Origin: Rhodospirillaceae bacterium bin65
GTDB lineage: Bacteria > Pseudomonadota > Alphaproteobacteria > Bin65
Assembly (NCBI GenBank): GCA_002238725.1
Contig: MPMX01000005.1
Span: forward strand, 28,150 to 52,149
Reading direction: 5' to 3'
Length of the DNA: 24,000 bases
Within the stretch, counting starts at the first letter, position 1. Each line of letters opens with the position of its first letter. The notes beneath the pieces were generated by a model. It was not told the DNA's origin, made no database searches, and was given only the letters and a program-made list of their open reading frames with translations. Below are positions 2,733 to 19,583 of the stretch, one piece after another. A program made the translations under genes and the position numbers.

Positions 2733-2736
2733 CGGG

Positions 2737-5073: not shown

Positions 5074-5964
5074 TCAGGACCGTCCGGGGTCGAGGAGCGA
5101 GATTGGCGCGCGTCTGCCGAGTTCAACCCGTATCCGGCAGATTGTGCCGTCCGGCACGGTGAGGTCCGACGCCCCGTCGAGGCGGATGTCGATCCGGCGC
5201 CGGGACGGCGGAACGGCGGGCTTCAGCCCTGCCAGCCAGCCCGGCAGCGGACTGGCGACCGCCCCGGCGACCGTGCCGTTCAGTCGGTGTGTCGCACCGT
5301 CGGGCAACGCAAATTCGACGGTAGCCGCCATGCCGGGCCGGATGCGCTGCGCCGTGGGCCGGTCGACCCGCAGCACCGCCTGAAGCGGCCGGTTCCCGGC
5401 TCGGCGAATTTGTGCGACGGCCGTGCCGGCCGGCAGAAAATCTCCGGCGGTCCTGGAAAGGACCATGACTTCGCCCGCGGTCCGGCTAACGATCGTCTGC
5501 CGCGCCGAGCGCCGGGCCTCCATCCGCAGCAACGCAACCCGGGTCGAGGCCAGCAGCGACCGCAGCGCGCTGCCGGTGCCGCCGGATCGCGCGATTTCCG
5601 CGCGCAACACGTCCACCCGCTCCCGAAGTGCGGTCGTTTCGCGTTCCAGATCGGGCACGGTCTGGCGCGCAACCGGCTGGCCTGCCCGGACGCGGTCGCC
5701 CGGCCGGACCAGATACTCGATCAGTTGACCGGGTTCAGCCGAAACCGCGGCATGGCGCTCTCCCGGCGCGATCAGCACGCCGTCGACCGTCACGCTCCTG
5801 ACGACGCTGCCGAACAGCAGCCAGGCCACGAACGCCGCAACGACCAACCCGATGGCGGCGAGCGCCAGACGTTCGTGCGGCGCGGTTATTCTGAGAAGTC
5901 GGTCGAGCTGCTCGCGCTCGTTCTTGGCGTCGGCGGATAAATTGTGAAACGGGTTGTTGAACAA
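5074..5964 (-). CDS. HlyD-family membrane-fusion/secretion adaptor of the bacteriocin export system
   Basis: N-terminal ...EREQLDRLLRITAPHERLALAAIGLVVAAFVAWLLFG, a single TM anchor after an LD-rich segment. Then a lipoyl-like segment (GQLIEYLVRPGDRVRAGQPVAR), a coiled-coil stretch (LERETTALRERVDVLRAEIAR) and beta-barrel-like repeats. It is first in the operon with the two ABC genes. At 296 aa it is shorter than most HlyD proteins, and there is no obvious SD before the ATG. Confidence 0.8.
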   Translation of the reverse strand: MFNNPFHNLSADAKNEREQLDRLLRITAPHERLALAAIGLVVAAFVAWLLFGSVVRSVTVDGVLIAPGERHAAVSAEPGQLIEYLVRPGDRVRAGQPVARQTVPDLERETTALRERVDVLRAEIARSGGTGSALRSLLASTRVALLRMEARRSARQTIVSRTAGEVMVLSRTAGDFLPAGTAVAQIRRAGNRPLQAVLRVDRPTAQRIRPGMAATVEFALPDGATHRLNGTVAGAVASPLPGWLAGLKPAVPPSRRRIDIRLDGASDLTVPDGTICRIRVELGRRAPISLLDPGRS

Positions 5965-6528: not shown

Positions 6529-6783
6529 ATGCAATCAGCAGAGGACATGCGCGCCCATCTCACGAACAGGGCCGCCGAGGATTCGGCGTTCCGGGCGCAA
6601 CTTGTCGCCGATCCGAAAAGCGTCATGAATCAGGAATTCGGAATTACGGTTCCGGATAACATCGATATCGTGGTGCACGAGAGCGACATGCGCACCGTCC
6701 ATCTCGCGTTGCCGCCGGATCCCGTCATGGACGAGGAGCAGCTCGAAGCGATCTCCGCCGGGCTTTGCTGCTGCGGCATCTGA
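6529..6783 (+). CDS. NHLP (nitrile hydratase leader peptide) family RiPP precursor; predicted core LCCCGI
   Basis: 84 aa. The leader matches the NHLP pattern as I remember it: AAEDSAFRAQLVADPKSVMNQEFGITVPDNIDIVVHESDMRTVHLALPPDP, then EEQLEAISAG as a double-glycine-type (AG) cleavage site. Only LCCCGI follows before the stop. Strong SD GAGGGAG lies 6 nt upstream. The gene is divergent from the C39-ABC export operon and is followed by hairpins. Confidence 0.9.
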   Translation: MQSAEDMRAHLTNRAAEDSAFRAQLVADPKSVMNQEFGITVPDNIDIVVHESDMRTVHLALPPDPVMDEEQLEAISAGLCCCGI

Positions 6784-6799
6784 ACGACGCCAGCCGCTT

Positions 6800-6824
6800 C
6801 CGGCCCGGCTGCCGGCCGGGCCGG
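6800..6824 (+). terminator. Perfect 10-bp GC hairpin just after the precursor stop (stabiliser/attenuator candidate)
   Basis: CCGGCCCGGC (6800-6809), loop TGCCG, GCCGGGCCGG (6815-6824). No clear U-tract follows (GGCTATTCTG), so it is more likely an mRNA-stabilising or pausing structure than a full intrinsic terminator. Confidence 0.35.
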
Positions 6825-6848
6825 GGCTATTCTGCAGTCTGGATTATT

Positions 6849-6892
6849 CGGGCGCGGCTATTGTACTAGCCTCTATGCGCCCGATTTTTTTT
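6849..6892 (+). terminator. Rho-independent terminator/attenuator between the precursor and the RND gene
   Basis: Two-tier stem: CGGGCGC(6849-6855) GGCTA(6856-6860), loop TTGTAC, TAGCC(6867-6871), bulge TCTAT, GCGCCCG(6877-6883). This is followed by A and a T8 run (6885-6892), the longest T run I saw in the window. Confidence 0.6.
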
Positions 6893-6972
6893 CAGCCGGC
6901 TGCAAATTCTCCGAGCGGGTTCCGCGATGAACGGAACCGTGCGGTTTTGGCTGCCTGACGCGTTCACGGCTC

Positions 6973-9348
6973 GTGGCTCCGACGATGGCAGACCAGCCCG
7001 GCAACCCGACGCGGCCGTTCGAGGCACGCTTTGCCGAGCGTGTGGTTGCGTTGCGCTGGCCGATCATTGCGGCCAGTCTCATCCTGGTGTTGATCGCTGG
7101 AGCCGGCGGCGCCTTTCTTCAATTTTCGACGAATTACCGGATCTTTTTCAGCCAGGATAATCCCGAGCTCTTAGCCTACGAAGCGCTGGAGAACACCTAC
7201 GGGAAGACTGAAAACGTCCTCTTCATGATCGTGCCGGAGGCCGGCGACGCCAGCTCGGAACCGGCCCTCAAGGCCGCGGTCTGGCTGACCGAACGGGCCT
7301 GGCAGACGCCCTATTCCCGCCGGGTCGATTCGATCGCCAATTTCCAGCATACGACGGCGGTCGGCGACGATCTGGTGGTGCGCGACCTCGTCGATTCCGC
7401 AAAGCTGGGCGATCCGGAGGAACGGGCGCGGATCCGCGCCGCGGCCCTCGCCGACCCGCGGCTCAAGGGCAGCCTCCTGGCGCGGGACGGCCGCGTCAGC
7501 GCTGTCAACGTCACCGTCGAGTTGCCGGAGGAAGACCAGGCGATCCGGGTACCCGAGGTGGCCGGGTTCGCCCGCAAGCTCGCCGCCGAGGCGGAAAAGC
7601 GTTTTCCGGGCGTCGATGTCCGCGTCGTCGGGACGGTGATGATCAACCACACCTTCTCCCAGGCGTCGGTCGACAGCCAGAAAGTCTTCCTGCCCGCCAG
7701 CCTTGCGATCATGGCCCTGGTCCTCATCCTCCTGACCCGCGGCTTTGCAGGCGTCGCGGCGACCGGGCTGGTCATGGTCTTCTCCATCGTCGTGTCGATG
7801 GGGATGGGCGGATGGGTCGGCCTGCCGTTCACACCGCCGACGGCGCCGGCCCCGACCATCGTGCTGATGATCGTCGTCGCCAACTGCGTACATCTGCTGG
7901 TGACGTTGCAGCAGCGCCTGCGGGCCGGCGATTCGAAACGCGAGGCCATTGTCGAAGCCGTCAGGATCAACCTGCATCCGGTCTTTCTGGCCAGCGTGAC
8001 GACGGCGCTCGGCTTCCTGACCATGAACTTCTCCGAAGTGCCGCCCTACCGGCATCTCGGGAATTTCGTGGCCTTCGGCATTGTCGCCTCCTTCCTGCTC
8101 TCGGTCACCTTTCTGCCGGCGCTGCTTTCGCTCCTCCCCCTGCGCGCGCGCGGCTCCGGACGGCAGGACGACCGGGCCATGGCGGCCCTCGCGGACTTCG
8201 TGGTGCGCCGCCGCACGGCCGTGCTGTGGGGCTCGGTGGCGGTCGTGCTCGCGCTGCTGGCCGCCATCCCGCGCAACGATCTGAACGACGTGCTGGTCCA
8301 CTTCTTCGACGAGAGCACGGAGTTCCGGCAGGATACGGATTTCCTGGACGAACGGCTGAGCGGCAACACCCTGCTCGAATATTCGCTGCACGCGGCCGAA
8401 CCGGGCGGCGTCACCGATCCCGCCTTTCTCGCCAATGTCTCGGCCTTCGCCGACTGGTACCGCAAACAGCCGGAAACGCGGCACGTCGACTCGATTACCG
8501 ATACCTTCCGGCAACTCAACAAGAGCATGCATGGCGACGATCCGGCGACCTACCGGCTGCCGGCAAGCCGCGATCTCGCCGCGCAATACCTGCTGCTCTA
8601 CGAGCTTTCCCTGCCCCAGGGCCTGGACCTGAACAACCGGATCGACACGGCCAAATCGGCAACGCGCCTGACCGTGACGACCAGGACGCTCTCTTCCGGG
8701 GACGTGCTGGCCCTGAATGCGCGTGCGCGAGCCTGGCTGAAGGGCAATGCGCCGAAAATTACACGGGTCGACAGTTCAGGACCGGCGCTGCTGTTCGCCC
8801 ATATCGGGCAGCGCAACATCCGCGCCATGCTGCTCGGAACCGCGGTTGCGCTGCTCGGCATTTCGCTCATCCTGATTGCCGCCTTCCGTTCGCTCCGCCT
8901 CGGCTTCATGAGCCTCGTGCCCAATTTCGTGCCCGCCGTGATGGGATTCGGCGTTTGGGGGCTGATCGTCGGGCAGGTCGGCCTCGCCCTGTCGGTGGTG
9001 GTCGCCATGACAATCGGCATCGTCGTGGACGATACGGTGCACTTCCTCAGCAAATACCGCCGCGCGCGGCGCGAACTCGGCCATTCGTCGGAGGAGGCGG
9101 TTCGCTATGCCTTCCAGGCGGCCGGCCGGGCGCTCGTCACGACCACGGCCGTGCTGGTGGCGGGCTTCCTGATCCTCCTCCTGTCGCCGTTCATCCCGAC
9201 GGCGCAGGTCGGCCTTCTCACCGCGATGATCATCGGCTTCGCGCTGGTCGCCGACCTGCTGCTCCTGCCGGCGTTGCTGCTTGCGATCGACCGCGGCGAC
9301 CCGGCTTCCGGAAAGGCCGATACAGTCTCAGGCGACGCTGCCGCCTGA
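6973..9348 (+). CDS. RND-superfamily exporter, MMPL/COG1033-like (two-fold 6+6 TM architecture with two large periplasmic loops)
   Basis: 791 aa. An N-terminal TM (WPIIAASLILVLIAGAGGAF) and a ~170-aa loop are followed by a 5-TM bundle (...IVLMIVVANCVHLLVTL...FLASVTTALGFLTMNFSE...). The pattern then repeats in the second half (...GIVVDDTVHFLSKYRRAR...ALVTTTAVLVAGFLILLLSPF...). The track start at 6973 is a GTG; ATG 6985 is an alternative. No strong SD precedes either. Confidence 0.85.
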   Translation: MAPTMADQPGNPTRPFEARFAERVVALRWPIIAASLILVLIAGAGGAFLQFSTNYRIFFSQDNPELLAYEALENTYGKTENVLFMIVPEAGDASSEPALKAAVWLTERAWQTPYSRRVDSIANFQHTTAVGDDLVVRDLVDSAKLGDPEERARIRAAALADPRLKGSLLARDGRVSAVNVTVELPEEDQAIRVPEVAGFARKLAAEAEKRFPGVDVRVVGTVMINHTFSQASVDSQKVFLPASLAIMALVLILLTRGFAGVAATGLVMVFSIVVSMGMGGWVGLPFTPPTAPAPTIVLMIVVANCVHLLVTLQQRLRAGDSKREAIVEAVRINLHPVFLASVTTALGFLTMNFSEVPPYRHLGNFVAFGIVASFLLSVTFLPALLSLLPLRARGSGRQDDRAMAALADFVVRRRTAVLWGSVAVVLALLAAIPRNDLNDVLVHFFDESTEFRQDTDFLDERLSGNTLLEYSLHAAEPGGVTDPAFLANVSAFADWYRKQPETRHVDSITDTFRQLNKSMHGDDPATYRLPASRDLAAQYLLLYELSLPQGLDLNNRIDTAKSATRLTVTTRTLSSGDVLALNARARAWLKGNAPKITRVDSSGPALLFAHIGQRNIRAMLLGTAVALLGISLILIAAFRSLRLGFMSLVPNFVPAVMGFGVWGLIVGQVGLALSVVVAMTIGIVVDDTVHFLSKYRRARRELGHSSEEAVRYAFQAAGRALVTTTAVLVAGFLILLLSPFIPTAQVGLLTAMIIGFALVADLLLLPALLLAIDRGDPASGKADTVSGDAAA

Positions 9349-10665
9349 AGCCGCCGGGTTTCCGTCGAACGGCATGCCTTCGCCGCCGAAAACCCGGTTC
9401 GGGTCGAACTCGTTTTTCCAGCGGATGGCCGTTTCAAGCATGTCGCCATAGTGTTCCCGCCATTCGCCGGGTCCGTAACCCACGCGGCCCGACAGATAGG
9501 CTTTCCCGCCGAGTCCGATCAGCGTTCTGTCGATCCTCCGCAGCCGTTCCGCCAGTTCGTTTGCCCGTTCGAACTCGTCGAAAACGGCGAGGACCGAGTA
9601 TGAGAACATCCGTTCGCCCGCGGGGTGCATGAAAAGCGGCGCGCCGATATCCTGCGTTGCGATCGGGTAAATGCCGATCCAGATGTCCGGCGTGCGCGGC
9701 ACCCGGTCCGGGTCGAGCCACGGTTGGGCGAGCACCGTTCGAAGGGCCTCCCAGGGCATGAACCAGTCCCGCCAGGGGTGAAACATCCTCCGGCTGAACG
9801 CCCATCTCGGATACATTCCGGCGCGTCCGACGTCGGCTGAGTCCTTGGCGGAAACGATCTCGTCGTATCCCAAACCACTGAGCGTCCTGCCCTCGTCGTG
9901 ATCTTCGTCATATTCGACGCCGGCGCTCATGACGATATCCCGGTCATGGACCCGGGTTTCCGCCCGAATATGGTCGAACCTGTCTTCGCGGACGGCTTGT
10001 TCGAAGTCGTTCGCGAACCGGTCGAAGTCACGGTAGCGGAGCTCGTATTGCCGGATCCGTTTGCCGGCCTTTCGAAGCCGGATCCAGGCGTCGGTTACGA
10101 TGCCGAACTGGCCCTGACCGCCCCTGACTGCATCGAACAGGCCGGAATTCCTGCTGTTTGAGCACAAAACCTTCTCGCCGGTTCCGGTCACCACCTCGAG
10201 TTGCTCGACCTGCCCGGCCTGCACCCCGTGCCGATGGGACGTCGTTCCGAATCCTCCCGCAGACAGCGTGCCGCCCACGCTGACTTCCGCCGTGTCTACG
10301 AGAATCCGCGGGAGTCCGCTCGTTTCGCGCAGCGCGTCGACAATCGAGCCCCACTGCGCTCCCCCTTGCGCGCGCACCAGGTCCGGGCCGGCGGTTTCGA
10401 CCCGACCGAGCCAGACCGTGTCGACCACCAGCCCGCCGTCGGTCAGGCTCTGGCCGCCCTGGGAGTGCCCGCCGCCGCGAATGGAAAGCCGAACGTCCTC
10501 TTTCGCCGCCCACCGGACAATGCCCGACACGTCCTCGACGCTCTTCGGCCGCGCCACCGCGCCCGGCGTCCGTTCGATCATTCTTCCGAAGTCGCGGGAC
10601 CGCGGATCGAGGTCCACCTGTTCTCTGCTCAGGCCCGGAATGACACCTCGTTCGTTCATTGGCAT
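9328..10665 (-). CDS. FAD-linked oxidase, PCMH/FAD_binding_4 type with a cytokinin-dehydrogenase-like C-terminal domain
   Basis: N-terminal FAD-binding block PKSVEDVSGIVRWAAKEDVRLSIRGGGHSQGGQSL (a GHS motif typical of covalent histidyl-FAD enzymes), then VGGTLSAGGFGTTSHRHG. The C-terminal LGGKAYLSGRVGYGPGEWREHYGDMLETAIRWKNEFDPNRVFGGEGMPF resembles the CKX C-terminal signature (YL...W..HFG..W......K..DP..i..PGQ.IF). The 3' end overlaps the convergent RND gene by 21 nt. Confidence 0.85.
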   Translation of the reverse strand: MPMNERGVIPGLSREQVDLDPRSRDFGRMIERTPGAVARPKSVEDVSGIVRWAAKEDVRLSIRGGGHSQGGQSLTDGGLVVDTVWLGRVETAGPDLVRAQGGAQWGSIVDALRETSGLPRILVDTAEVSVGGTLSAGGFGTTSHRHGVQAGQVEQLEVVTGTGEKVLCSNSRNSGLFDAVRGGQGQFGIVTDAWIRLRKAGKRIRQYELRYRDFDRFANDFEQAVREDRFDHIRAETRVHDRDIVMSAGVEYDEDHDEGRTLSGLGYDEIVSAKDSADVGRAGMYPRWAFSRRMFHPWRDWFMPWEALRTVLAQPWLDPDRVPRTPDIWIGIYPIATQDIGAPLFMHPAGERMFSYSVLAVFDEFERANELAERLRRIDRTLIGLGGKAYLSGRVGYGPGEWREHYGDMLETAIRWKNEFDPNRVFGGEGMPFDGNPAASGGSVA

Positions 10666-10819
10666 CCACTTTCCACGCTCGTTGTCGATGTCTTCGGGGC
10701 CCGGCGTTTCGGAGGCCCCGATACCTATCGCAGCAAAGCCTTTCCGCAGGCAACTCCCTGCACCGCCCGGAAGTCTGCGTCCTTGTAAAGCGCTTTGGGT
10801 CTACCTACGCTGCCGCGCG

Positions 10820-11689
10820 ATGAATCGAATTCAGCAACCGCCGGATACCGGGACCGAGATGGAAACCACTGTTTCCGAGCACTACGCCGACCTGACCGAG
10901 CGCATGGAAATGTTCGGCGGCGACCTGCTGGCCTGTCATTTCGGCCTTTGGGGCCCGGACACGACGACGGACCGGGAAGGCCTGCTGCGCGCCAACCGGA
11001 CGCTCGTGCAGGGGTGCGACCTCGGACCGGGGCGGCACGTGCTGGATGCCGGCTGCGGCGTCGGCGGCACTGCGATTACGCTGGCCGAGACCTGCGGCGT
11101 ACGCGTCACCGGCCTGACGATCTGCGAACCTCATATCGCCGTGGCGACGCAGCACGCGGAAGAGCGCGGAGTAGGCCACCTGGTCGACTTCCGTTACGGC
11201 GATTTCATGGATCTGCCGTTTCCCGATGCCAGTTTCGACGCTGTCCTGAATCACGAATCCTTCTGCTATGCGGAGGACAAGCTCGCCTATCTCCGGGGCG
11301 TGTACCGGGTGCTCAAGCCCGGCGGGCGCTGGCAGGCTCTCGAAGGGCTGCTGAGCGGTGCGCCCATGTCCGAAGAACAGGAAGCAAATCATGCCACCGC
11401 GCAGCGCGGCTGGCGCATGCCGCCGCTCGAGCGGTGGCGCGACGTGATTGCATTGCTCGACGAAGCCGGATTCGTCGACATTCGGGAGCGGGATCTTTCG
11501 TCGGAAGCGGCGCCGGCGACGAAACGGCTTCGCGACGGGTGGCTGTTGCTGACTTTCCTGAACCCCCGGTCCGGCGGGCTGAACAAGGCGTCCCAGGAAT
11601 TTATGGAAGCGACTGTCGGCTACGATCAGGGTCTGCGCGAAGGCGTGTTCACCTATCATTTCCTGTCCGGGGCCAAGCCGGATCGGTGA
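10820..11689 (+). CDS. Class I SAM-dependent methyltransferase (paralog 1)
   Basis: SAM motif I VLDAGCGVGGTAITLA, post-I acidic GLTICE, motif II/III FDAVLNHESFCY and VLKPGGRW. The N-terminal EHYADL...HFGLWGP block is as in the sarcosine/tocopherol/GPP-C-methyltransferase-type family. The track ORF (10268..) extends upstream into sequence antisense to the oxidase. I place the start at ATG 10820 (MNRIQQ...); ATG 10859 (METTVSEHY) is an alternative. Confidence 0.8.
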   Translation: MNRIQQPPDTGTEMETTVSEHYADLTERMEMFGGDLLACHFGLWGPDTTTDREGLLRANRTLVQGCDLGPGRHVLDAGCGVGGTAITLAETCGVRVTGLTICEPHIAVATQHAEERGVGHLVDFRYGDFMDLPFPDASFDAVLNHESFCYAEDKLAYLRGVYRVLKPGGRWQALEGLLSGAPMSEEQEANHATAQRGWRMPPLERWRDVIALLDEAGFVDIRERDLSSEAAPATKRLRDGWLLLTFLNPRSGGLNKASQEFMEATVGYDQGLREGVFTYHFLSGAKPDR

Positions 11690-11701
11690 CCTGTCCGGTC
11701 G

Positions 11702-11719
11702 CGGAATCTGTAAATTCCG
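11702..11719. terminator. Small hairpin between the two convergent methyltransferase genes
   Basis: CGGAAT (11702-11707), loop CTGTAA, ATTCCG (11714-11719). The stem is only 6 bp with no flanking T/A runs, so this is a weak candidate for a bidirectional terminator. Confidence 0.25.
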
Positions 11720-11747
11720 AACGCCCGAGGCCTGGATGGCGGCCGGA

Positions 11748-12647
11748 CTATGCGGGTTTCTGTGCGCAATACCGCTTGAGCTCGAAGCTCCCGTTTTTCC
11801 AGGCTTCGTACAGCGTTCCGAACTGATCGATCAGCCCGCGGATCCCCGGCGTTTCGACTCCGGCAAACTGTAGCGTGGCAAGGAAATTGTAGCTGTTTCC
11901 GACAAGCCGCAGGTTATCCGAATCCTTGCCGTCGAATCCCTCGAACTCGAGAATTTCCAAACCCGCTTCGTGCAGTTTCTCCGTGTAGGTGGACTGGGTC
12001 TCCAGACCGTCCACGGCAAATGGCTTGCACAGCGGCACGATGTGCTTCTCGTAGACATCGGCCGCCAGGCCGTCGCGCGCCATCCAGTCCATTGCCGCGA
12101 TCTTTCCCGAGGGCTTCAGTATCCGGCCCACTTCGAGAAGAAATTGCCTCCGGTCGCTGTAGTGGCAGGCGCTCTCTATGTTGACGACAGTATCGATCGA
12201 ATCGTCGGCGAAGGGCAGACTCTGCGAGCAATCCGCATATTCGAAGGAAATCCGGTTATCCAGATCCGCATCTGCCGCTTTTCCGGCGGCAATTTCCAGC
12301 TGCATCCTGTTGATGTTGACGCCGGTGACGGTGCATCCCCTGGACCGGGCCAATAGAATGGCGGTTCCGCCGACGCCGCATCCCGCATCCACCACATGGT
12401 GGCGTTCCTCGATTCCGGCCGGCGCAACAATGGCCTCGACCATGCGCTCCACGGCCCGGGCGAGGCCCGGTGAATCGACGAGAGATTCGCCGGGTTCGGG
12501 ACACTCCCCGGGCTCGAACAGTCCGAAATGGATATGGTCGCGGTTCCACCCGTTGAGGTAGATGCCGGGCGTGTTTTCGTCGTAGTAGCGTTCGGCCGCA
12601 CTTTTCTCTTCTGACGCGGATGTCTCCGGACGTTCGTTCACTGTCAT
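11748..12647 (-). CDS. Class I SAM-dependent methyltransferase (paralog 2)
   Basis: 299 aa. N-terminal ERYYDENTPGIYLNGWNRDHIHFGLF, SAM motif VVDAGCGVGGTAILLA, GVNINR, IDTVVNIESACHY and ILKPSGKIAAMDW. It aligns by eye with the 10820-11689 product along the whole Rossmann core. It is last in the minus-strand biosynthetic gene string. Confidence 0.85.
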   Translation of the reverse strand: MTVNERPETSASEEKSAAERYYDENTPGIYLNGWNRDHIHFGLFEPGECPEPGESLVDSPGLARAVERMVEAIVAPAGIEERHHVVDAGCGVGGTAILLARSRGCTVTGVNINRMQLEIAAGKAADADLDNRISFEYADCSQSLPFADDSIDTVVNIESACHYSDRRQFLLEVGRILKPSGKIAAMDWMARDGLAADVYEKHIVPLCKPFAVDGLETQSTYTEKLHEAGLEILEFEGFDGKDSDNLRLVGNSYNFLATLQFAGVETPGIRGLIDQFGTLYEAWKNGSFELKRYCAQKPA

Positions 12648-12748
12648 CGCCTCAGGATTGCGCTACCGTTCCGCAGGATGTCCGAACATAACATTTCCGC
12701 GGTCCCGGAGCGAGGGCCGGGCGTTCGTATCGGGATGTCGACCGACGA

Positions 12749-13867
12749 TTATGAAGTCGGCGCGGCGATCAGCACCATGTAAACGTAGCCCTTGACCTGC
12801 CCGATGCCGTCGCCGTCCAACACGATCTTGAAGTGGTGAATGCCGCGCAGCAGCACAAACTGGCCGGACCTCGAAAACAGCGTCGTCGGCCCCGCCGTCC
12901 ATCCTGACAGCGCGGACAATTTCTGCGGCACGCCAAGACCTTCCGTGCGCAGGCCGTCGACGAAGGTATTCCAAAGGCGGGGATCGTCCAGCCAATAGCG
13001 CGGATCCTTAGACACCCTTTCCTTGGCAATGAAACTCAGTCCGAGCGTTGGGCCCAGACCGCCGGACAAGACGTCGAAATGCGCCCCCAGGGCGACGAAC
13101 CCGCCATGTTTTTCGAAGCGCGAGACAGCGGCCGCGGCGGCCGGGCGCTGTCCCGGCCAGCCCGCGCGTTCGAGGAATGCCGCCAGATCCTGCGAGTTCC
13201 GAAACCCCGTCACTGCAAGCCGGAGCGCTCGTTCCCGCGAAGGGAAGGCGCCAAAGGATTCGACTCGCGTGTCCGGCCTTTGCGCCAGGTAAATCCGCTC
13301 TGCATGCTGCCGCTCGGCGGCATCGGGGCTCCAACCAACGGCGGATACCAGCGCGTCGAGCACCGTACCGACATCGCCGAGGCATCGGCCGTCGCCCACC
13401 ATCGGCCGTTCTGCCGGCCGGAGAAAGATGCCGGGATCCGCCGGCGCGTCGTCGGGTCTCGAAGCGACGTCGTATTCGAGCATCATCTTCCGTCCGACGA
13501 CCTGGCAAAGCGGCGAATCGTCGGGCTCGGTTTGCTCCAGCAGTTGCGCGATGGCCGAAGCTGACGGAACCGGTTTGTCCAGCCGCGCCTGTTTTTCGAA
13601 ATACGCCGCCGGTCCGGTGCCGCCGACAACCGAAACTCCGAGGTCGGCGCCCGGCCGGGTCTCGTGCAGCGGCAGTTCGAAGCCGAACGGGAAGGCGGCC
13701 ACGGCCGCCGGCAGGTCCCGGGCGCGCTCCAGGACACTTTCCCACTCACGGTCACCGATCAGGACGGGCGATATCTGGCCCCTCAACCGTTCCAGCACTT
13801 CGGCCATGGAGCCGGCTTCGCCGGCGAGGCGCTCCTGGGTCACGGCCAGGCCTTCCTCAAAATTCAT
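12749..13867 (-). CDS. Hypothetical protein, 372 aa, with no family motif I recognise; translationally coupled to the cyclodehydratase
   Basis: Excellent SD GAGGAG 5 nt before ATG 13867, sitting inside the last codons of the upstream gene (stop at 13877). The composition is protein-like rather than the R/G/P-rich shadow type. There are five pairs of beta-strand-like segments separated by helix-like segments (see finding). No cofactor or catalytic motif was identified. Confidence 0.7.
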   Translation of the reverse strand: MNFEEGLAVTQERLAGEAGSMAEVLERLRGQISPVLIGDREWESVLERARDLPAAVAAFPFGFELPLHETRPGADLGVSVVGGTGPAAYFEKQARLDKPVPSASAIAQLLEQTEPDDSPLCQVVGRKMMLEYDVASRPDDAPADPGIFLRPAERPMVGDGRCLGDVGTVLDALVSAVGWSPDAAERQHAERIYLAQRPDTRVESFGAFPSRERALRLAVTGFRNSQDLAAFLERAGWPGQRPAAAAAVSRFEKHGGFVALGAHFDVLSGGLGPTLGLSFIAKERVSKDPRYWLDDPRLWNTFVDGLRTEGLGVPQKLSALSGWTAGPTTLFSRSGQFVLLRGIHHFKIVLDGDGIGQVKGYVYMVLIAAPTS

Positions 13868-13876
13868 ATCCGCTCC

Positions 13877-16267
13877 TCACGCGATAACCGGCACAGGATT
13901 GAGGTCGGCTTCCGGCAGCGGCGACTCGCGCCAGCCCATTTCGACCGGAACGTCGTACAGGCGCCCGGGCGCGAAACGCTCCCAGAAATGGCGCAGGCCG
14001 GGCACGATGACCCGCGCCACCGGCATGCCGATATCCGGCCGCGTCTGGTCGAGCACCAGAAATTCCATGTCCCTGGCCTCGACCAGCGCCCGGCACCGCT
14101 CGACCTCTTCGCGCGCGTCGGCTGTATCCGGGACAGGATAGTCCGCATTGCCGCGCGTGGGCGCCCCCGCCGCCGGCGCCAGCCAGGGATGGTCCGCCAG
14201 CGTCGCCGTCTTCCACCACCACAGCGCCAGCGGATCGTCGATCGCCGGGCCGCCGCCGCCCGGCCGCGGCAGCCAGGTCAGGCACTGGTTCAGCTCGCAC
14301 ACCGCGCGCAGGGCCGCGATGCGCGGGTCGGTATGCGCCCCGGCGCCGTAGATGATGTCCTCGGTTTCGCCGCCGATCTTGCGCGAGACGGCGACGAAGG
14401 CGGGAATGCCGAGGTCGGCGGTGACGTCGAGCACCCACATGTCGCGCTCATGCCGGCGGTAATAGTCCGGCGCCGAGGCCAAGTAATCGTCGCCGAAACT
14501 TTCCAGATCCACGCCCGGCACGCGCAACCGGTTGTACCACCAGATCGCGAAGGCGTCGCGTTCGACCAGTTCGAAGAAGCCCTGGAGGATCGCCTCTTCA
14601 AGGGTATTGCCGGCGGCGCAGCCGTTCGAATCCGCGATGAAATCGGCGCTGCCCCGTTGCTCGGCCGGCGTGCTGTAGAGCATCGATGTCGGCAGATGGC
14701 GGTGGCGATCCTGCGTCAGCGACCAGACCGGCGACCAGCTTATTTCGGCGTCCGGATCGAGCCGCTGCGGCACGATATTGTACGGATGGCCCCGGGCGTT
14801 GATTTCGTCCGCATTTTCCAGCTGGCGTTCGCTGAACAGCTGGACGTCGTTCGGGTGGATCGCCGCTGCATTGCCGGCTGCGCCCAAATCCACATACCGC
14901 CCGAGCCGGCGGATCTCGTCGCCGTGGAAGGCGCCGGAGTAGCGCTCGATCGCTTCGCACAAGGCGCTGGCCTCGGACTGCGCCCGCGTGCTGCCCTTGC
15001 CGGCGCTCTTGCTGCGCAGGCTACGCCTCAGCGAGCTCAATTTCCGGCTTCGCAGTCCGTAGTTGGTCCCCGCCCAGTAAACGTGGAGCCAGGAATCGGC
15101 CTCTTCCGTGGTGCGCGCCACCCAGGTCACGACGCCGCTGACCGGGCTGATCAGATTGCGGTATCGGGCCAGGGTCGCTTCGGGGGAGACTGCGCGCACG
15201 CCGCCGCTGTTGCTGATGCCGGTCGGGCTCGGCTGCAGGCGCACCGGAACCGGCGGCCGGTCGGCGCGGTACAGGCCCTCGTCGCCGCACGCGAAACATT
15301 GCGGCCGGCGCATGACCGGATGCCGCTCGCCGGCGAGACGGCCGACATCGAGCGAGATGGCCTGCGCATGGAGCGGTGCCGCTTCGTCCAGAACCAGCCA
15401 TTTGGCGATCTCGGCCGCGATCAGGCCGTAGACCGCGTCCAGCACGGCGGGCTCTGCGGCGCCGGGCCGGAAGGCGGCCTCGTCGCCCGCGATGTTGCGC
15501 AGGAAGTTGTGGACCTCCCGGTGGCTGCGCATCCGGTAGGCGAGGCAGGCCCAGCACGGCCCCCGTTCCGCCGGCCGGAACACCGGGCCGAACAGCGGTT
15601 GCAGGCCCTTCGGCCGAACGAGCACCCACGGTGCGCCGGTTTCGATGCGCTTCCGGTTGATGGCGTCGCAGCGTTCTTCGAGATAATCGGCGCAGACGAC
15701 CGCTGTGAGGGCGATATCCTCCCGGCCCGTCGCGACGCCCATCGCCTCGAGCCGCCGGGAAAACTGTCCGCCGTCGCCGTCGACCGCCACGCGCGCCGCC
15801 GCCAGGCGCTGTTCCGCCCAGCGCGGCGCGGCGCCGAGGGCAGACCAGTAGGCCGCCCGGCCCCGGTCCATCGAATGTTCGGCGGAAACGGCATAGCCCC
15901 TGGACGCTAGGCCGGCGAGCGCGGTGCGGATATCGGCAGCGGCATGGGCGCCGGCGAGTGCCGCAACGATGTCGCCCTGCGGCCGGCCGTCGAGCAGTGG
16001 CAGCAGATCGCGGTAGATCGGCCGGCGCAGCAGCGTATTGAAGGTTTCGGAAACCAGCAGGGTCTGCTGCCCGTCGACCGGATGAAAGTCGAGATGCGGC
16101 GTGAGCGTCGGCCGTTCGACAAGCCCCCGGTCCTCGGCCGAGACCCTTGTCAGGATTCCCGGCGGCGACGGTCTGGCCGGCGAAGCGGGCGCGTCTGTCT
16201 TGCTGTCCGGGGCCGGGGCGGCGGAACGGCGCGATGGACTGCCGTCGGGTCGATGCCTGTCAGTCAT
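13877..16267 (-). CDS. Fused E1-like (SagC/ThiF-like docking) plus YcaO (SagD-type) azoline-forming cyclodehydratase
   Basis: 796 aa. The N-terminal half carries the cyclodehydratase-domain pattern (PHLDFHPVDGQQTLLVSETFNTLLRRPIYRDLLPLLDG ... PWVLVRPKG...GPVF...GPCWACLAYRMR ... CFACG). The C-terminal half is YcaO-like (GKGSTRAQSEASALCEAIERYSG, DSNGCAAGNTLEEAILQGFFELVERDAF, GIPAFVAVS, GAGAHTDPRIAALRAVCELNQ, proline-rich C-terminal tail ...IVPGLRHFWERFAPGRLYDVPV). The first ~50 aa are a P/S/A-rich low-complexity extension. Confidence 0.9.
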   Translation of the reverse strand: MTDRHRPDGSPSRRSAAPAPDSKTDAPASPARPSPPGILTRVSAEDRGLVERPTLTPHLDFHPVDGQQTLLVSETFNTLLRRPIYRDLLPLLDGRPQGDIVAALAGAHAAADIRTALAGLASRGYAVSAEHSMDRGRAAYWSALGAAPRWAEQRLAAARVAVDGDGGQFSRRLEAMGVATGREDIALTAVVCADYLEERCDAINRKRIETGAPWVLVRPKGLQPLFGPVFRPAERGPCWACLAYRMRSHREVHNFLRNIAGDEAAFRPGAAEPAVLDAVYGLIAAEIAKWLVLDEAAPLHAQAISLDVGRLAGERHPVMRRPQCFACGDEGLYRADRPPVPVRLQPSPTGISNSGGVRAVSPEATLARYRNLISPVSGVVTWVARTTEEADSWLHVYWAGTNYGLRSRKLSSLRRSLRSKSAGKGSTRAQSEASALCEAIERYSGAFHGDEIRRLGRYVDLGAAGNAAAIHPNDVQLFSERQLENADEINARGHPYNIVPQRLDPDAEISWSPVWSLTQDRHRHLPTSMLYSTPAEQRGSADFIADSNGCAAGNTLEEAILQGFFELVERDAFAIWWYNRLRVPGVDLESFGDDYLASAPDYYRRHERDMWVLDVTADLGIPAFVAVSRKIGGETEDIIYGAGAHTDPRIAALRAVCELNQCLTWLPRPGGGGPAIDDPLALWWWKTATLADHPWLAPAAGAPTRGNADYPVPDTADAREEVERCRALVEARDMEFLVLDQTRPDIGMPVARVIVPGLRHFWERFAPGRLYDVPVEMGWRESPLPEADLNPVPVIA

Positions 16268-16355: not shown

Positions 16356-18830
16356 TCAGGACGGGCCGGCCGCGGCGTCCGCCGTCGCGTCCAGCGCGCC
16401 GATCACGGCGGCGGCGCGCGCCGCCGTTTCGCCGGCCGCGGCATCCAGCGCGTCGAAATCGTCCTGGCCGCAGGACTGCGCGAGCACGTCCCTGGCACTC
16501 GATCCCAGCGCCTCGGCCTGGACGCCATCGCCTGCGACGAGCCGCTGGGCGCCGTGCAGGTTCCGCCACAGCGCCGCGGCGTCCGCCAGGTCCGCCGCCG
16601 GACCGTCAGCGATCTTTCCCTGTGCGGCTGCGGCGCGAAAGACCGAAGCCGCGGCGGGTGCGGGATCGTCCGGGGCGTCCCCGGCAAGGACCAGTTGCAG
16701 GAGCCGTGCAGCGCGTTCGACATCAAAAAGGCCGCCGCGCATGTTTTCATACGCAGCAAGCCCGGTTCCGGCATCGCCGTTGCCGGCGGTGTGCAGTTCG
16801 GCGATCAACCTGCCGCGCGCGGCGCCCGCGGCCAGGGCTTCGCGCCGCGCCTGGTCGAACCGCTCTCCGATTCCGGCCGCGCCGTGTTCGAAAATGCAGC
16901 GCGCGCGGGTCAGTTCCAGAAGTTCGCTTGCCGGCGCGGCGGTCCGGCAGTGCTCCGCGAAACCGGTCAGGGACCGCACAGGGCGCCCTTTCCGGCTGCC
17001 GGGGATCGGCGCGAAAATCAGGCTGTCGCGCGACAGTTCCCTGAGCGCATCGTGGAAACGCCAGCACAGGCCATCGTAGCTGTCGTCGGAGCCGCCTTCG
17101 TAGACGAAGAGAATTTCGAGCGCAGCGCCGGGCGCCGTTTCCCGGCTCGCCGGATCGCCCAGGATTGCAGCGGCGACACCGCCCCCGCTCCCCGGCACGA
17201 GCCGGCCGGCGAATTGCTCGGCGACCGACGACAGGACGGCGGAAATCGAGGCTTCGGCCAGATTGGACAGGGCCGTCCCCGCCTCGATCGGCGTCAGGTT
17301 GCCCCGCAATGTGTGCATGCCGATCTGGAACGCCTTGTCGTTCGACCAGTTGCGCAGCGTCTCCACCGTGTCCCGAACGTCCTGGACCGGCGTTTCGGCG
17401 ATGCGTTCCTTCATTTCGGCGACGCCGAATTCGTGCGTCCAGTAGAGGCGTGTCAGGCCCTGGCGGGCGATCGCCTCGGCCTCCGGGTCCGGGCCGAAGC
17501 CCTTGGGCAGGTCGAGATCGGTGAATTCCCTGTCCTGCAGGCTGTCGAGCAGTTCCGGATGCCGCTCGATCCATCCTGCGAGATGCGGCGCGGCGGCGAA
17601 TATCTCGACGATGGCGTCGAACGCTTCCGGGCGCGCGGTCGAAACCGGGCTGTCGTAGGCGCTCCAGTCCTCGATCTCGGGATAGAACTGCGCGCGCCAC
17701 CGGTCGACCAGCGGGTCCATGGTCTCGAACCATCGCTTGGGACGCACTGCCAGGTTGAACATCCTGGCGTAGCTGCCCGGCAGTTGCGGCGACTCGTCGG
17801 CGCCGCGATTCTGCAGCAGGGGATAGGGCCGGCTCGCCACGGCGTGGTGATCCGGGTGCCGCTGCATGTTGTAGAACATCCAGTTGCTGAACTTGTAGTT
17901 GGCGTTCCACGAGTGCCGGGGCCGGACCTTCTCGAACCGGCCGCTGCGCAGGCGGACCCGGCGCAATCCGTAGTGCTGCATGTAGTTGCTGATCTTCATC
18001 GAGAAGACGGTGCCGAGGCACAGGACGGCATAAGCCAGAACCGCCCACAGGCCGCCCATCCAATAGATAAGCGCATACCAGAAACCGGTTTCGATCCCGT
18101 ACCGCCAGAACGGGTTGCAGTAGTGCCAGATCGGCAGGGGGGGGGGGGCCCGCCCCCCCCCCCCCGCCCGCCCCCCCACCCCCCCCCGCGCGCCCCGCCA
18201 GGAGCCGGTAAGATTGCTCGCGACTTCCCGGGGAAAGTACTGCCAGAAGCTCTGGCCCCTGGGCGCGGAGCCGACGTCCAGCGGCGTGCCGACCAGGGCG
18301 TGGTGGATGTAGACATGCTCGGTGGCGTATTGCGGGTAGGAGGCGGACGCGAGCAGGAACTCGCCGAGCCGCCGCTCCCAGGTTGCGCGCCGGTGGATCA
18401 GTTCGTGGCCGACGATGAAGACCGCCTGGGCTTCGCCCGTGAGCACAACCGCCAGCAATATGCATTCCCAGACCGAGAACTGGCCGGCGGCAAGGATCTG
18501 CCAAAGCCCGAACACGAGAGTCGGCGGCCAGAGAAATGCCCAGAACCAGACCGGCAGGTTGTGCCAGAACAGCTTTCGTTCGGGAGTATTTGCGGGGTCC
18601 ATGTTCCGCTCGTCGTCGCCGAAGGCGATGTCCAGCGGGCCCGCGAGCATGAAGAAGGCAAACGGCGCCGCAATCCACCAGCCGCCGTGGATTAGGGCGA
18701 GGATAATCAGCGGAAAAATTGCCAGCGGCAGGAAATGGGGCAGGGCGTTGCGGAACGAAGGTTCGATTGCCTTCGCTGCGCGGGTGTTTCCGGAGTTCAG
18801 ACCGCCCGGTTCGACGATATTTTCCGCCAT
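16356..18830 (-). CDS. Fusion protein: N-terminal AlkB-type membrane di-iron hydroxylase/fatty-acid-desaturase-fold domain, C-terminal GlnE-like (glutamine synthetase adenylyltransferase half) domain with a degenerate active site
   Basis: 824 aa; SD AGAGG lies 6 nt before ATG 18830. AlkB hallmarks appear in order: HELIHR, EHVYIHH, NYMQHYGL, HSWN, LQRH-like NMQRHPDHH, and the C-terminal MDPLV. From about aa 400 it aligns by eye to one GlnE half: AAAPHLAGWIERHPELLDSLQD; VETLRNWSNDKAFQIGMHTLRGNLTPIEAGTALSNLAEASISAVL; then AILGDPASRETAPGAALEILFVYE where GlnE has GKLGG.ELGY.SDLDLIFL; then LELTRARCIF and GGLFDVERAARLLQLV. The frame stays open across the G12/C13 tract at 18137-18187. Confidence 0.8.
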   Translation of the reverse strand: MAENIVEPGGLNSGNTRAAKAIEPSFRNALPHFLPLAIFPLIILALIHGGWWIAAPFAFFMLAGPLDIAFGDDERNMDPANTPERKLFWHNLPVWFWAFLWPPTLVFGLWQILAAGQFSVWECILLAVVLTGEAQAVFIVGHELIHRRATWERRLGEFLLASASYPQYATEHVYIHHALVGTPLDVGSAPRGQSFWQYFPREVASNLTGSWRGARGGVGGRAGGGGRAPPPLPIWHYCNPFWRYGIETGFWYALIYWMGGLWAVLAYAVLCLGTVFSMKISNYMQHYGLRRVRLRSGRFEKVRPRHSWNANYKFSNWMFYNMQRHPDHHAVASRPYPLLQNRGADESPQLPGSYARMFNLAVRPKRWFETMDPLVDRWRAQFYPEIEDWSAYDSPVSTARPEAFDAIVEIFAAAPHLAGWIERHPELLDSLQDREFTDLDLPKGFGPDPEAEAIARQGLTRLYWTHEFGVAEMKERIAETPVQDVRDTVETLRNWSNDKAFQIGMHTLRGNLTPIEAGTALSNLAEASISAVLSSVAEQFAGRLVPGSGGGVAAAILGDPASRETAPGAALEILFVYEGGSDDSYDGLCWRFHDALRELSRDSLIFAPIPGSRKGRPVRSLTGFAEHCRTAAPASELLELTRARCIFEHGAAGIGERFDQARREALAAGAARGRLIAELHTAGNGDAGTGLAAYENMRGGLFDVERAARLLQLVLAGDAPDDPAPAAASVFRAAAAQGKIADGPAADLADAAALWRNLHGAQRLVAGDGVQAEALGSSARDVLAQSCGQDDFDALDAAAGETAARAAAVIGALDATADAAAGPS
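18137..18187. repeat. Extreme G/C homopolymer block inside the alkB-like CDS (G12, then C13, C7, C9)
   Basis: G12 at 18137-18148, CCCG, C13 at 18153-18165, GCCCG, C7 at 18171-18177, A, C9 at 18179-18187. G12 and C13 are self-complementary and could form a GC-only hairpin. The block encodes RGARGGVGGRAGGGGRAPPPLP in the annotated frame. Confidence 0.9.
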
Positions 18831-19321: not shown

Positions 19322-19583
19322 CGGGCTACTTCATCTCGCCCGGGCCGGCGCGCCCGGCAGGCCTCTTACCGCTCCCTCGCCCGGACCCTGCAGTTCCCGG
19401 AGGTCAATGAAACACCCGGTCGGTCTTCCAATTCTTCAATGATTCAACATCTGCGCAGGAATCTGCTAAAAGGGGTTCCGGCAGCGCTGCCGGCCAAAGG
19501 CCCACCCGAATTCCGGTCCGTCGAATACGCAGGGAATGGCGGGGCGATTTCAGCGCTCCACGACCGCGACAGGGGGGGGCCGC

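Follow-up and report, generated by a model that had tools for sequence, protein, structure and literature searches.

What does a 372-residue protein with no recognizable domain do when its gene directly follows that of a fused YcaO cyclodehydratase? The question arises in a 24,000-nucleotide stretch of the Rhodospirillaceae bacterium bin65 genome (contig MPMX01000005.1, positions 28,150 to 52,149 of the forward strand; hereafter "the window"), whose features are listed in Table 1. We use "PTB" as a label for this 372-aa PT-barrel (ABBA-fold) protein. The open reading frame proposed in the initial annotation was confirmed on the minus strand, as was its GAGGAG Shine-Dalgarno sequence (SD) at the end of the YcaO gene: the sequence 5' of PTB reads GTT ATC GCG TGA GGAGCGGAT ATG, with the SD overlapping the YcaO stop codon by two bases and lying five bases from the ATG. 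A junction of this type (stop, purine-rich SD, ~9–10 nt, start) recurs in 54 of 79 related genome loci. Tight coupling of PTB to the cyclodehydratase is specific to one clade.

Table 1. Features of the window, with positions counted from its first nucleotide.
Feature	Position	Strand	Basis or remark
Second ABC transporter, cut at window edge	1..2736	-	63% identical to ABC2 of srp locus L040
Peptidase-C39 ABC transporter (PCAT), leader cleavage and export	2737..5073	-	
HlyD-type membrane-fusion protein	5074..5964	-	
NHLP (proteusin) precursor, 84 aa	6529..6783	+	NHase_alpha match, E=4e-8
MMPL/RND transporter (HAE3, HpnN-like)	6973..9348	+	Domain matches
VAO/PCMH-type FAD_binding_4 oxidoreductase	9328..10665	-	Closest solved relatives cytokinin dehydrogenases, E=4e-39
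MT2, second class I SAM methyltransferase	10859..11689	+	Start uncertain: ATG 10859 or 10820
MT1, class I SAM methyltransferase	11748..12647	-	Domain matches; window-type clade only
PTB, putative peptide prenyltransferase	12749..13867	-	372 aa; ORF and predicted fold
YcaO stop TGA (13879-13877) and PTB SD GAGGAG (13878-13873)	13873..13879	-	Translational-coupling junction
Fused cyclodehydratase (SrpC-like), 796 aa	13877..16267	-	Pfam/NCBIfam matches
824-aa fusion, FA_desaturase/AlkB-like and GlnE-like nucleotidyltransferase	16356..18830	-	Domain matches

PTB had been described as an orphan, which proved wrong: its homologs form at least 727 clusters at 90% identity (405 representatives at 50% identity), are spread over at least 8 phyla, are almost always ~370 aa long, and are called "hypothetical protein" wherever a source gives a name. 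Because hundreds of these homologs are conserved over their full length, a chance open reading frame of a GC-rich genome is excluded. As the initial annotation had noted, PTB displays no cofactor or catalytic motif, and it has zero matches in Pfam and NCBIfam. No Pfam match at E<=10 was obtained for any of 64 aligned family members, no prenyltransferase (PT) was retrieved from PDB sequences by phmmer or with family profiles, and a scan of members of 390–540 aa returned no informative fused domain. WD40 and PRP40 matches at E ~1 were discarded as noise. Sequence profiles thus place PTB neither in an unrelated family (Pfam, NCBIfam, PDB sequences) nor in the Pfam Trp_DMAT, PTase_Orf2, or cyanobactin PT families, and the PTB family is unnamed, with no Pfam or NCBIfam model.

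Structure prediction was more informative. The AlphaFold2 (AF2) model of PTB (pLDDT 93.8, pTM 0.92) contains, according to DSSP, ten long strands arranged as five hairpins with helix pairs between them, i.e., five alpha-beta-beta-alpha units. Five strand pairs had been picked out by eye in the initial annotation as a possible PT barrel, and all ten segments overlap the ten long strands of the model, seven being covered completely and three over most of their length. The comparison suggested there, with NphB, CloQ, DMATS, and PagF structures, came out in favor of this reading: all 50 of the 50 matches listed by Foldseek against the PDB are ABBA (PT-barrel) prenyltransferases, including EpzP, NphB, FunA, FamD1, AmbP1/3, DMATS1, CloQ, TleC, and FtmPT1, with a best E-value of 1e-6, moderate TM-scores of 0.44–0.56 (the highest normalised to the PTB query being 0.56, with DMATS1), and rmsd values of 7–9 Å. 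The model is therefore more similar to solved ABBA members than to any other fold. The model of a homolog only 29% identical to PTB (P0219, pLDDT 91.6) has the same five-unit layout of strands and helices, and its Foldseek search placed PTs at ranks 1–32, among them the RiPP enzymes PirF, PagF, and DciF, with noise thereafter. With the ten antiparallel strands in five alpha-beta-beta-alpha units of the ABBA superfamily found in both models, PTB is confidently predicted to have a PT-barrel fold, one known to date from no enzymes but those that transfer prenyl groups.

Residue conservation was compared across 67 PTB-family sequences with identities as low as 25%. P53 and H345 do not vary, and conservation reaches at least 90% for E64, D75, L130, E131, D133, R211, R216, K316, K347, K359, and Y361. 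From strand polarity we infer that the conserved strand and loop residues share one end of the barrel, that of the hairpins, and strand alternation and polarity further suggest that they line its lumen; K316, equally conserved, is on a helix and not assigned to a barrel end. In ABBA PTs, as published, basic residues balance the charges of the diphosphate and Tyr forms hydrogen bonds with it, or Mg2+ is bound via an Asp at the polar end (PMC7973389); the predicted placement of the conserved PTB residues would match this description. Since Y361 is the only strand Tyr that is strongly conserved in the family, a DMATS-style four-Tyr shield is not evident.

The surroundings of the gene relate it to the sponge-derived RiPP proteusin (srp) clusters, reportedly described by Nguyen et al. 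(JACS 2021). Shared by these clusters and the window are an NHLP leader, a CCC motif, a fused SrpC-like YcaO, an AlkB-like/GlnE-like fusion, and PCAT/HlyD and MMPL genes, and the window is syntenic with the 79 loci. Its precursor has a leader ending in ...EEQLEAISAG followed by the core LCCCGI, whereas the canonical srp core, LCCCW, carries a C-terminal Trp and is accompanied by the Trp-6 brominase SrpI. Given that the core ends in GI and that no halogenase homolog was found in the window, we consider this locus a variant of the srp cluster rather than its canonical form. The NHLP::terpene-cyclase-like fusion of srp loci is likewise missing from the window, which has instead two methyltransferases and a cytokinin-dehydrogenase-like flavoenzyme. 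A PTB ortholog 50–53% identical to that of the window is present in canonical LCCCW loci, and in sponge symbionts PTB belongs to the standard gene set of the srp proteusin clusters, as a core, near-universal member. Neither the PTB protein nor prenylation is mentioned in three reports that describe these clusters (PMC10286304, PMC10858898, and bioRxiv 10.1101/2023.06.09.544420). In sponge microbiomes, the srp clusters rank with the biosynthetic loci that are most widespread and show the highest transcription (bioRxiv 10.1101/2023.06.09.544420; PMC9426513). Their product is still cryptic. Studies so far have been confined to the YcaO, the precursor, and the brominase.

The conserved junction could mean that PTB serves the YcaO as a non-catalytic or regulatory partner, its barrel holding the core or leader and aiding three consecutive cyclodehydrations, with translational coupling ensuring that both proteins are made together. 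A missing partner would also fit the observation that SrpC alone is poorly active and leaves SrpE partly modified (PMC10286304). However, no YcaO lies within 10 kb of PTB in 17 of the 79 loci. Distant PTB members directly adjoin NHLP precursors with Cys-free cores where YcaO is absent (L081, L083, L084-L093), which argues that PTB is not a YcaO accessory and leads us to reject a docking protein for YcaO. In addition, the window YcaO, which matches TIGR03604 and TIGR03882, already carries, fused to its YcaO/SagD domain (aa 422-793), a winged-helix/RRE-like region (aa 56-125, a weak match) and an E1-like leader-binding domain (TIGR03882, aa 212-380), and the conserved residues of PTB are of the charged or polar types (E, D, R, K, H, Y) that catalysis or ligand binding would call for. 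No Pfam or NCBIfam model of a known YcaO partner (E1-like/Ocin-ThiF-like, TfuA) matches PTB, whose predicted fold is a PT barrel and whose co-occurrence with YcaO is not obligate. The YcaO-less members and the E1-like and RRE domains of the YcaO itself thus make a partner role improbable, and weaken the substrate-recognition or scaffold function offered earlier as an alternative.

The position of the gene directly 3' of the YcaO, together with the lack of a SagB-type FMN dehydrogenase among the assigned ORFs of the window, would fit the suggestion that PTB replaces the missing azoline dehydrogenase and converts thiazolines to thiazoles. We reject this reading as very improbable: PTB has no flavin or redox-cofactor motif and no match to nitroreductase families, and its predicted fold is a PT barrel and not the nitroreductase fold with an FMN site of SagB-type enzymes. 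The family moreover occurs with Cys-free, Ser/Thr-poor cores and without YcaO, and other redox candidates, the FAD enzyme and an AlkB-like di-iron domain, are encoded in the cluster.

What PTB does follow is the precursor. An NHLP precursor is present in 71 of the 79 PTB loci, no more than 900 bp away in 50 of them, and genomes with two precursor types encode two PTB paralogs (L017, L021). The best reading of these associations is that PTB is a precursor-linked tailoring enzyme and not a YcaO subunit. The cores hint at its acceptor. Trp occurs in every one of the five Cys-free core families (RGGNW, WDGSFADW, NGLISSWARA, F/YGAFWG, and SGSMLDLASAWNSLNQNS), with a probability of about 1e-5 of this occurring by chance, and one locus (L083) is a minimal system consisting of a precursor with the core RGGNW and PTB. 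Based on these core sequences, the acceptor in the Cys-free relatives of the window system is probably Trp. Most CCC cores also have a C-terminal Trp; LCCCGI (the window), LCCCMG, MCCCGI, and RCCC offer neither Trp nor another aromatic acceptor, and yet the window PTB keeps every conserved residue.

Such cores, along with a sequence unrelated to known PTs, could instead indicate a PT-barrel enzyme with another chemistry or substrate, be it a non-isoprenoid electrophile, a small aromatic acceptor, or a cyclisation or rearrangement of the core. Four predicted lumen-facing positions that differ between the CCC and Trp-core clades (P/R66, T/R274, S/E278, and H/N344) may point the same way. Against this, every significant structural match uses a prenyl diphosphate, the link between PTB and NHLP precursors is tight and specific and extends to matching paralogs, and the PTB neighbors point to isoprenoid or alkyl handling. 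We consider a different chemistry unlikely, while giving it some weight.

Among these neighbors, the cytokinin-dehydrogenase-like FAD enzyme of the window has a counterpart in L081 that is similarly close to cytokinin dehydrogenases (E=3e-42), and this enzyme is found together with PTB in two distant clades, including the distant YcaO-less one. The AlkB-like/GlnE-like fusion gene, located upstream of YcaO in most related loci, combines an N-terminal membrane di-iron domain, whose best solved relative is alkane 1-monooxygenase (E=1e-41), with a C-terminal GlnE-like nucleotidyltransferase domain. LCCCW loci encode a squalene-hopene-cyclase-like protein (a weak match, below the Pfam threshold), and in L082 a gene of the MpaB/Lcp rubber-oxygenase family (E=1e-11) sits immediately 5' of a PTB paralog. 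An unsystematic scan of neighbor proteins in inspected loci yielded no isoprenoid-diphosphate synthase gene. The argument from the neighbors of PTB (cytokinin-dehydrogenase-like, AlkB-like, MMPL/HpnN-like, terpene-cyclase-like, and MpaB/Lcp) is one of guilt by association: they resemble families in which the enzymes and transporters characterised so far handle isoprenoid or alkyl chains.

Taken together, we propose that PTB represents a new sequence family of peptide prenyltransferases, a predicted activity that we hold to be probable; our confidence is lowered by the lack of a sequence link to known PTs, the moderate TM-scores and rmsd, the single conserved strand Tyr, and the Trp-less core of the window. 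PTB would most likely be a soluble enzyme whose barrel takes up an isoprenoid diphosphate (DMAPP, GPP, or FPP) at its polar end, an end putatively lined by R211, R216, K347, K359, H345, and Y361 and also by an acid cluster (E64, D75, E131, D133, and D265). Once bound, the diphosphate would be ionised and its prenyl group transferred by PTB to the short core with the leader still attached; as the leader is removed by the C39 ABC exporter, modification is expected to precede cleavage. In the window, PTB may act with, or just after, the coupled YcaO, which would make thiazolines from CCC. Later tailoring of the prenyl group could fall to the two methyltransferases, the flavoenzyme resembling cytokinin dehydrogenases, and the AlkB-like/GlnE-like fusion, and the lipidated product could be exported via the PCAT/HlyD and MMPL transporters.

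For CCC clusters, including the window, a more speculative extension, which we rate as possible but doubtful, is that the isoprenoid is placed on a non-aromatic site and that the product is a peptide-terpenoid hybrid with a further-tailored chain. Candidate sites would be a Cys thiol, a heterocycle-flanked position, or the C-terminus, the first of which would be a bacterial equivalent, by an enzyme of the ABBA fold, of CaaX or Rab-type CC/CXC prenylation. The chain of such a hybrid might be hydroxylated and adenylylated by the AlkB-like/GlnE-like fusion, oxidised by the cytokinin-dehydrogenase-like enzyme, cyclised (squalene-hopene-cyclase-like protein of LCCCW loci), or cleaved (MpaB/Lcp-like enzyme).

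The predicted PT fold of a core srp gene, alongside neighbors that look like isoprenoid-handling enzymes, suggests a lipid-like prenyl group on the product that sponge-associated bacteria make from the srp clusters. If true, lipidation of the mature product may explain why it has escaped detection, and the prediction narrows down the substrates and mass shifts that experiments should target. Minimal members of the family consisting of a precursor and the enzyme, as in L083, could become leader-guided tools for peptide lipidation.

Among known systems, MppC from Moorena producens is a leader-dependent lanthipeptide PT of the ABBA fold, which attaches a geranyl group to Trp of a RiPP whose leader is long and structured (PMC12715784). 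MppC and, by prediction, PTB are both soluble alpha-beta-beta-alpha barrels encoded in RiPP clusters; the long structured leader of the MppC precursor is Nif11-like, a sister class of NHLP, and MppC acts on Trp in a short core within a cluster family that also has a Trp brominase. However, the MppC substrate is a lanthionine macrocycle while the partner of PTB is a YcaO or nothing, the activity of MppC is demonstrated and that of PTB predicted, and MppC is placed by its authors in one family with the cyanobactin PTs while PTB matches no known PT sequence family in Pfam, NCBIfam, or PDB sequences.

The cyanobactin F-family enzymes PagF, PirF, and DciF, which are among the structural matches of the distant PTB homolog, are PT-barrel RiPP tailoring enzymes like the predicted PTB. 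In linear cyanobactins, whose prenyltransferase is AgeMTPT, very short cores receive prenyl and methyl groups as well as YcaO-made heterocycles, and a PTB cluster could combine the same modifications. Yet cyanobactin PTs are ~300 aa long and belong to IPR031037, whereas PTB has 372 aa, an extra N-terminal helical region, and no sequence match to them, and its predicted structure ranks closer to the DMATS/AmbP/NphB type. No PatA/PatG-type proteases were found in PTB clusters. Cyanobactin PTs act after leader removal and independently of the leader (PMC12715784). PTB does not fit the F-family by sequence group, and its action, expected to precede leader cleavage, would differ from leader-independent action on processed or macrocyclic cores.

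The best TM-scores (0.50–0.56) were obtained with DMATS-type and bacterial indole PTs (FgaPT2, DMATS1, CymD, PriB, and IptA), which resemble PTB in length and in the basic residues and Tyr on their barrel strands, and whose acceptor, Trp, fits the Trp-containing cores of the Cys-free PTB clade. Their substrates, however, are free Trp or small molecules rather than leader-bearing peptides, and their sequence identity to PTB, which lacks a Trp_DMAT match and an evident four-Tyr shield, is 9–16%. A functional parallel comes from Paenibacillus alvei, in which PalQ adds a prenyl group to the Trp at the C-terminus of an NHLP precursor (PMC10853753). Like L083 with PTB, PalQ/PalX is a minimal system that pairs an NHLP precursor, whose short core ends in Trp, with one prenyltransferase, and PalQ activity is enhanced by the leader; as PalQ has an all-helical isoprenoid-synthase (ComQ-like) fold and not a PT barrel, the likeness is one of functional analogy and not of homology. 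Beside these systems, we propose that PTB founds a new, hitherto unannotated sequence family of RiPP tailoring enzymes acting on NHLP/proteusin precursors, a PT-barrel family tied to NHLP leaders.

The 372-aa barrel protein of the window (the target) belongs to a large family that shares the ABBA-prenyltransferase fold, lacks annotation, and is embedded in srp and related NHLP RiPP clusters. Pfam, NCBIfam, and the PDB sequences gave no match for the target. Among 5.8 billion proteins searched, there were 727 hits, nearly all 369–384 aa long, which contained no Pfam domain and were called "hypothetical protein" wherever they were named, and when 1.84 billion representatives were scanned exhaustively with HMMER, 405 clusters passed E<=1e-3 and 89 passed E<=1e-30; the target is thus not the orphan described in the initial annotation. 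Profiles from two family alignments (A1 and A2) found no prenyltransferase among PDB sequences, and no prenyltransferase Pfam model matched any of 64 family members, even at E<=10 (0/64). Membership in the PT-barrel fold thus cannot be detected by sequence.

The target structure was predicted with AlphaFold2 from the 64-sequence alignment A1 (mean pLDDT 93.8, pTM 0.92). The model contains strand hairpins at residues 61–66/75–81, 127–132/146–149, 201–207/215–222, 259–267/270–280, and 335–351/354–368, with two helices between successive hairpins, and each of the ten strand segments initially picked out by eye matches one of its ten long strands. A Foldseek search of 350,542 PDB chains returned 75 matches at E<=0.001, the best 50 of which were all ABBA-type prenyltransferases. 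Listed matches include EpzP, NphB/Orf2, FunA, FamD1, AmbP1/3, DMATS1, CloQ, TleC, 6-DMATS, AtaPT, FtmPT1, and NotF, with query-normalised TM-scores up to 0.56 and sequence identities of merely 9–15%. The test was repeated for P0219, a homolog 29% identical to the target, modelled from 37 aligned distant members (A3; pLDDT 91.6, pTM 0.91). Foldseek ranks 1–32 were prenyltransferases only, including CymD, PriB, IptA, FgaPT2, and the RiPP enzymes PirF, PagF, and DciF, beyond which probabilities were at noise level except for one more DciF chain. Because both predicted structures lead to prenyltransferases, the PT-barrel assignment is robust and valid family-wide, and the PT-barrel first suspected by eye was confirmed by this route.

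Conservation was assessed in A2, which aligns 67 full-length members with identities as low as 25%. No substitution occurs at P53 or H345, and conservation is 90% or more at E64, D75, L130, E131, D133, P145, G146, G206, P209, R211, R216, L232, W299, K316, L320, K347, K359, and Y361. Charged residues on strands alternate i, i+2 as for one strand face (K127/M129/E131/D133, R341/I343/H345/K347, K359/Y361), and strand polarity would place the conserved charges of strands and hairpin loops at a common (hairpin) end of the barrel. ABBA enzymes have a polar "upper" barrel end where basic residues balance the charge of the diphosphate and Tyr forms hydrogen bonds with it or, alternatively, where Asp holds Mg2+ (PMC7973389), a description with which the conserved set is compatible. 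With just a single conserved Tyr on the strands, there is no evident counterpart of the four-Tyr shield of DMATS enzymes. At predicted lumen-facing positions, distant members beside Cys-free cores (Trp-core clade) carry R66, R274, E278, and N344, whereas members beside CCC-core precursors (CCC clade) carry P66, T274, S/T278, and H344, a systematic difference that would be consistent with a change of substrate.

Genes of the window and their coordinates
Feature	Position	Strand	Basis
ABC transporter, truncated at window edge	1-2736	-	
C39-peptidase ABC exporter	2737-5073	-	
HlyD protein	5074-5964	-	
NHLP precursor, 84 aa, ...EEQLEAISAG/LCCCGI	6529-6783	+	
MMPL/RND transporter	6973-9348	+	
FAD_binding_4 oxidoreductase	9328-10665	-	
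Methyltransferase	10859-11689	+	
Methyltransferase	11748-12647	-	
Target, 372 aa	12749-13867	-	ORF call + structure model
YcaO	13877-16267	-	
Desaturase-like/GlnE-like fusion, 824 aa	16356-18830	-	
Periplasmic binding protein Peripla_BP_6	19536-20849	+	
MFS transporter	21636-22943	+	

The gene upstream of the target encodes a 796-aa, three-part fused cyclodehydratase, with a weak winged-helix/RRE-like match (aa 56–125), the E1-like leader-binding domain TIGR03882 (aa 212–380), and a YcaO/SagD domain (aa 422–793). As the sequence before the target ATG reads GTTATCGCG-TGA-GGAGCGGAT-ATG, the SD GAGGAG (13878–13873) overlaps the YcaO stop codon (13879–13877), in line with its initial placement at the YcaO gene end. 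Overlapping long ORFs occur on both strands of 12663–13887, e.g. 13008–13745 (-) and 13048–13887 (+); these match no family and were rejected as by-products of the ~65% GC. The window transporter is MMPL/HAE3/HpnN-like. Past the desaturase-like gene, the Peripla_BP_6 and MFS genes show no conservation among related loci and probably represent the cluster edge.

Scanning one genome per species identified 383 relatives, and 79 loci, all from MAGs, were examined. These span Alpha- and Gammaproteobacteria, Nitrospirales, Nitrospinota, Binatia, Poriferihabitaceae, Opitutales, Bryobacterales/Acidobacteria, Thermodesulfobacteriota, and Rhodothermales, with a sponge origin stated outright for several. 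Judging from record titles (L002–L080), MAGs from at least eight phyla, many of them sponge-derived, share a near-identical layout; this implies that sponge symbionts have exchanged the cluster extensively by horizontal transfer, in agreement with earlier reports on srp clusters. The precursor core in most loci is LCCCW, which marks them as "srp" (sponge-derived RiPP proteusin) clusters, in which the YcaO protein SrpC turns three Cys of SrpE into thiazolines and SrpI brominates its C-terminal Trp (PMC10286304, PMC10858898, bioRxiv 10.1101/2023.06.09.544420). L040, a canonical srp locus, includes two ABC transporters, an NHLP-leader::squalene-hopene-cyclase-like fusion, a desaturase/GlnE fusion, YcaO, the barrel protein, a precursor, an MMPL transporter, and a Trp halogenase. 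The window is an srp variant with a core of the LCCCG[I/V/L/F] type: the halogenase and cyclase-like fusion of L040 are absent from the window, whereas two methyltransferases and the FAD enzyme are present. Related cores begin with [L/W/M/R]CCC and either stop there or continue with W, G-x, or MG; within the window clade, cores that start with L have a hydrophobic final residue (I/V/L/F), and those that start with W have a polar one (N/T/Q). Neither the barrel protein nor prenylation is mentioned in the accessible srp literature, which does not cover the original JACS 2021 description, nor is srp mentioned in a December 2025 peptide-prenylation paper from the laboratory of the srp papers.

YcaO is encoded directly upstream of the barrel gene on the same strand in 54 of the 79 loci (anywhere in the locus in 62), and 71 include an NHLP precursor (<=900 bp from the barrel gene in 50). 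The initially proposed coupling to YcaO thus holds in the CCC clade but not beyond it, as distant members (25–35% identity) lack YcaO. L081 encodes, in order, a precursor (core WDGSFADW), a FAD_binding_4 enzyme (8589–10001) whose stop overlaps the start of the barrel gene, the barrel protein, and exporters, with no YcaO. In L083, a precursor (core RGGNW) lies directly upstream of the barrel gene, with no other tailoring gene in the locus; four secreted Cys-rich ~125-aa proteins, each with a signal peptide and three of them clear paralogs, flank this pair (8274–9163 and 11619–12517). L084–L093 have precursors on either side of the barrel gene (cores NGLISSWARA, F/YGAFWG, SGSMLDLASAWNSLNQNS), along with a FAD_binding_4 gene and PCAT/HlyD. 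Two loci, L017 and L021, each combine an LCCCW precursor, YcaO, and a barrel paralog with a WCCCGx precursor and a second paralog (~10.0–11.1 kb and ~19.6–20.8 kb), which suggests that a dedicated barrel enzyme is kept for each precursor type. L082 (core RCCC; regions 3624–5981 and 6099–12709) also encodes two paralogs, one after YcaO and the other after an MpaB/Lcp gene. Although the CCC-clade arrangement is what a YcaO helper would show, this role is unlikely for the target, given that the L081 and L083 barrel genes accompany NHLP precursors without YcaO. Because distant members accompany precursors in this way and paralogs accompany precursor types, the barrel protein is a tailoring enzyme tied to NHLP precursors, not a YcaO accessory.

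Cores and neighbours provide clues to its chemistry. Trp is found in all five Cys-free core families (5/5; chance probability ~1e-5) and is the C-terminal residue of most CCC cores; it is the classic acceptor for the ABBA prenyltransferase fold. The closest relatives of the FAD_binding_4 oxidoreductase are plant and bacterial cytokinin dehydrogenases, which oxidise N-isopentenyl groups and make up the top 14 PDB matches of both the window (E=4e-39) and L081 (E=3e-42) enzymes. Two distant clades have this enzyme together with the barrel protein (window; L081; L092, 9513–11102), and canonical LCCCW srp loci lack it. The 824-aa fusion, a membrane di-iron FA_desaturase/AlkB-like domain joined to a GlnE-like nucleotidyltransferase domain, has alkane 1-monooxygenase AlkB as closest solved relative (E=1e-41), lies just upstream of YcaO in ~57/79 loci, and does not occur in the clade without YcaO; candidate roles are that of the missing azoline oxidase or that of an alkyl hydroxylase combined with an adenylyltransferase. 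LCCCW loci encode a protein weakly matching class II terpene cyclases (Pfam E=3e-4; drimenol synthase E=2e-3). This ~436–470-aa protein (L040, 3851–5161 (+); most LCCCW loci, L023–L079) has an NHLP-leader-like N-terminus, with ...TGA/AS... at the position of the precursors' SAG/L cleavage site, followed by a weakly squalene-hopene-cyclase/drimenol-synthase-like alpha/alpha-toroid domain, and may be a substrate of the C39 transporter for export and cleavage. The MpaB/Lcp gene of L082 (rubber oxygenase family, E=1e-11) is directly upstream of its barrel paralog. Each of these is an association alone, but taken together they are read most economically as pointing to a product that carries an isoprenoid or alkyl substituent.

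We infer prenyl transfer, and the target is probably a peptide prenyltransferase. Several cores lack any aromatic residue, namely LCCCGI (window), LCCCMG, MCCCGI, and RCCC, and the PT-barrel might instead serve a different chemistry or substrate; we regard this as rather improbable. Despite its non-aromatic core, the window enzyme keeps all conserved residues, and it differs from LCCCW-type orthologs by mostly conservative changes. B-type (window-clade) enzymes for LCCCGx and WCCCGx cores are alike, and this argues against the first core residue as acceptor. In the CCC clade, the acceptor could be the C-terminal Trp where the core has one, a Cys or Ser side chain (LSCCW and LCCSW occur as rare variants), a terminus, or something unanticipated.

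Overall, identification of the target brings the long-cryptic srp product within experimental reach. Among characterised enzymes, PalQ, which differs from the target in fold, acts on an NHLP precursor and prenylates its C-terminal Trp (PMC10853753), and the ABBA prenyltransferase MppC geranylates C5 of Trp and depends on the entire long leader (PMC12715784). The target would be a new variant within the known class of RiPP ABBA prenyltransferases.
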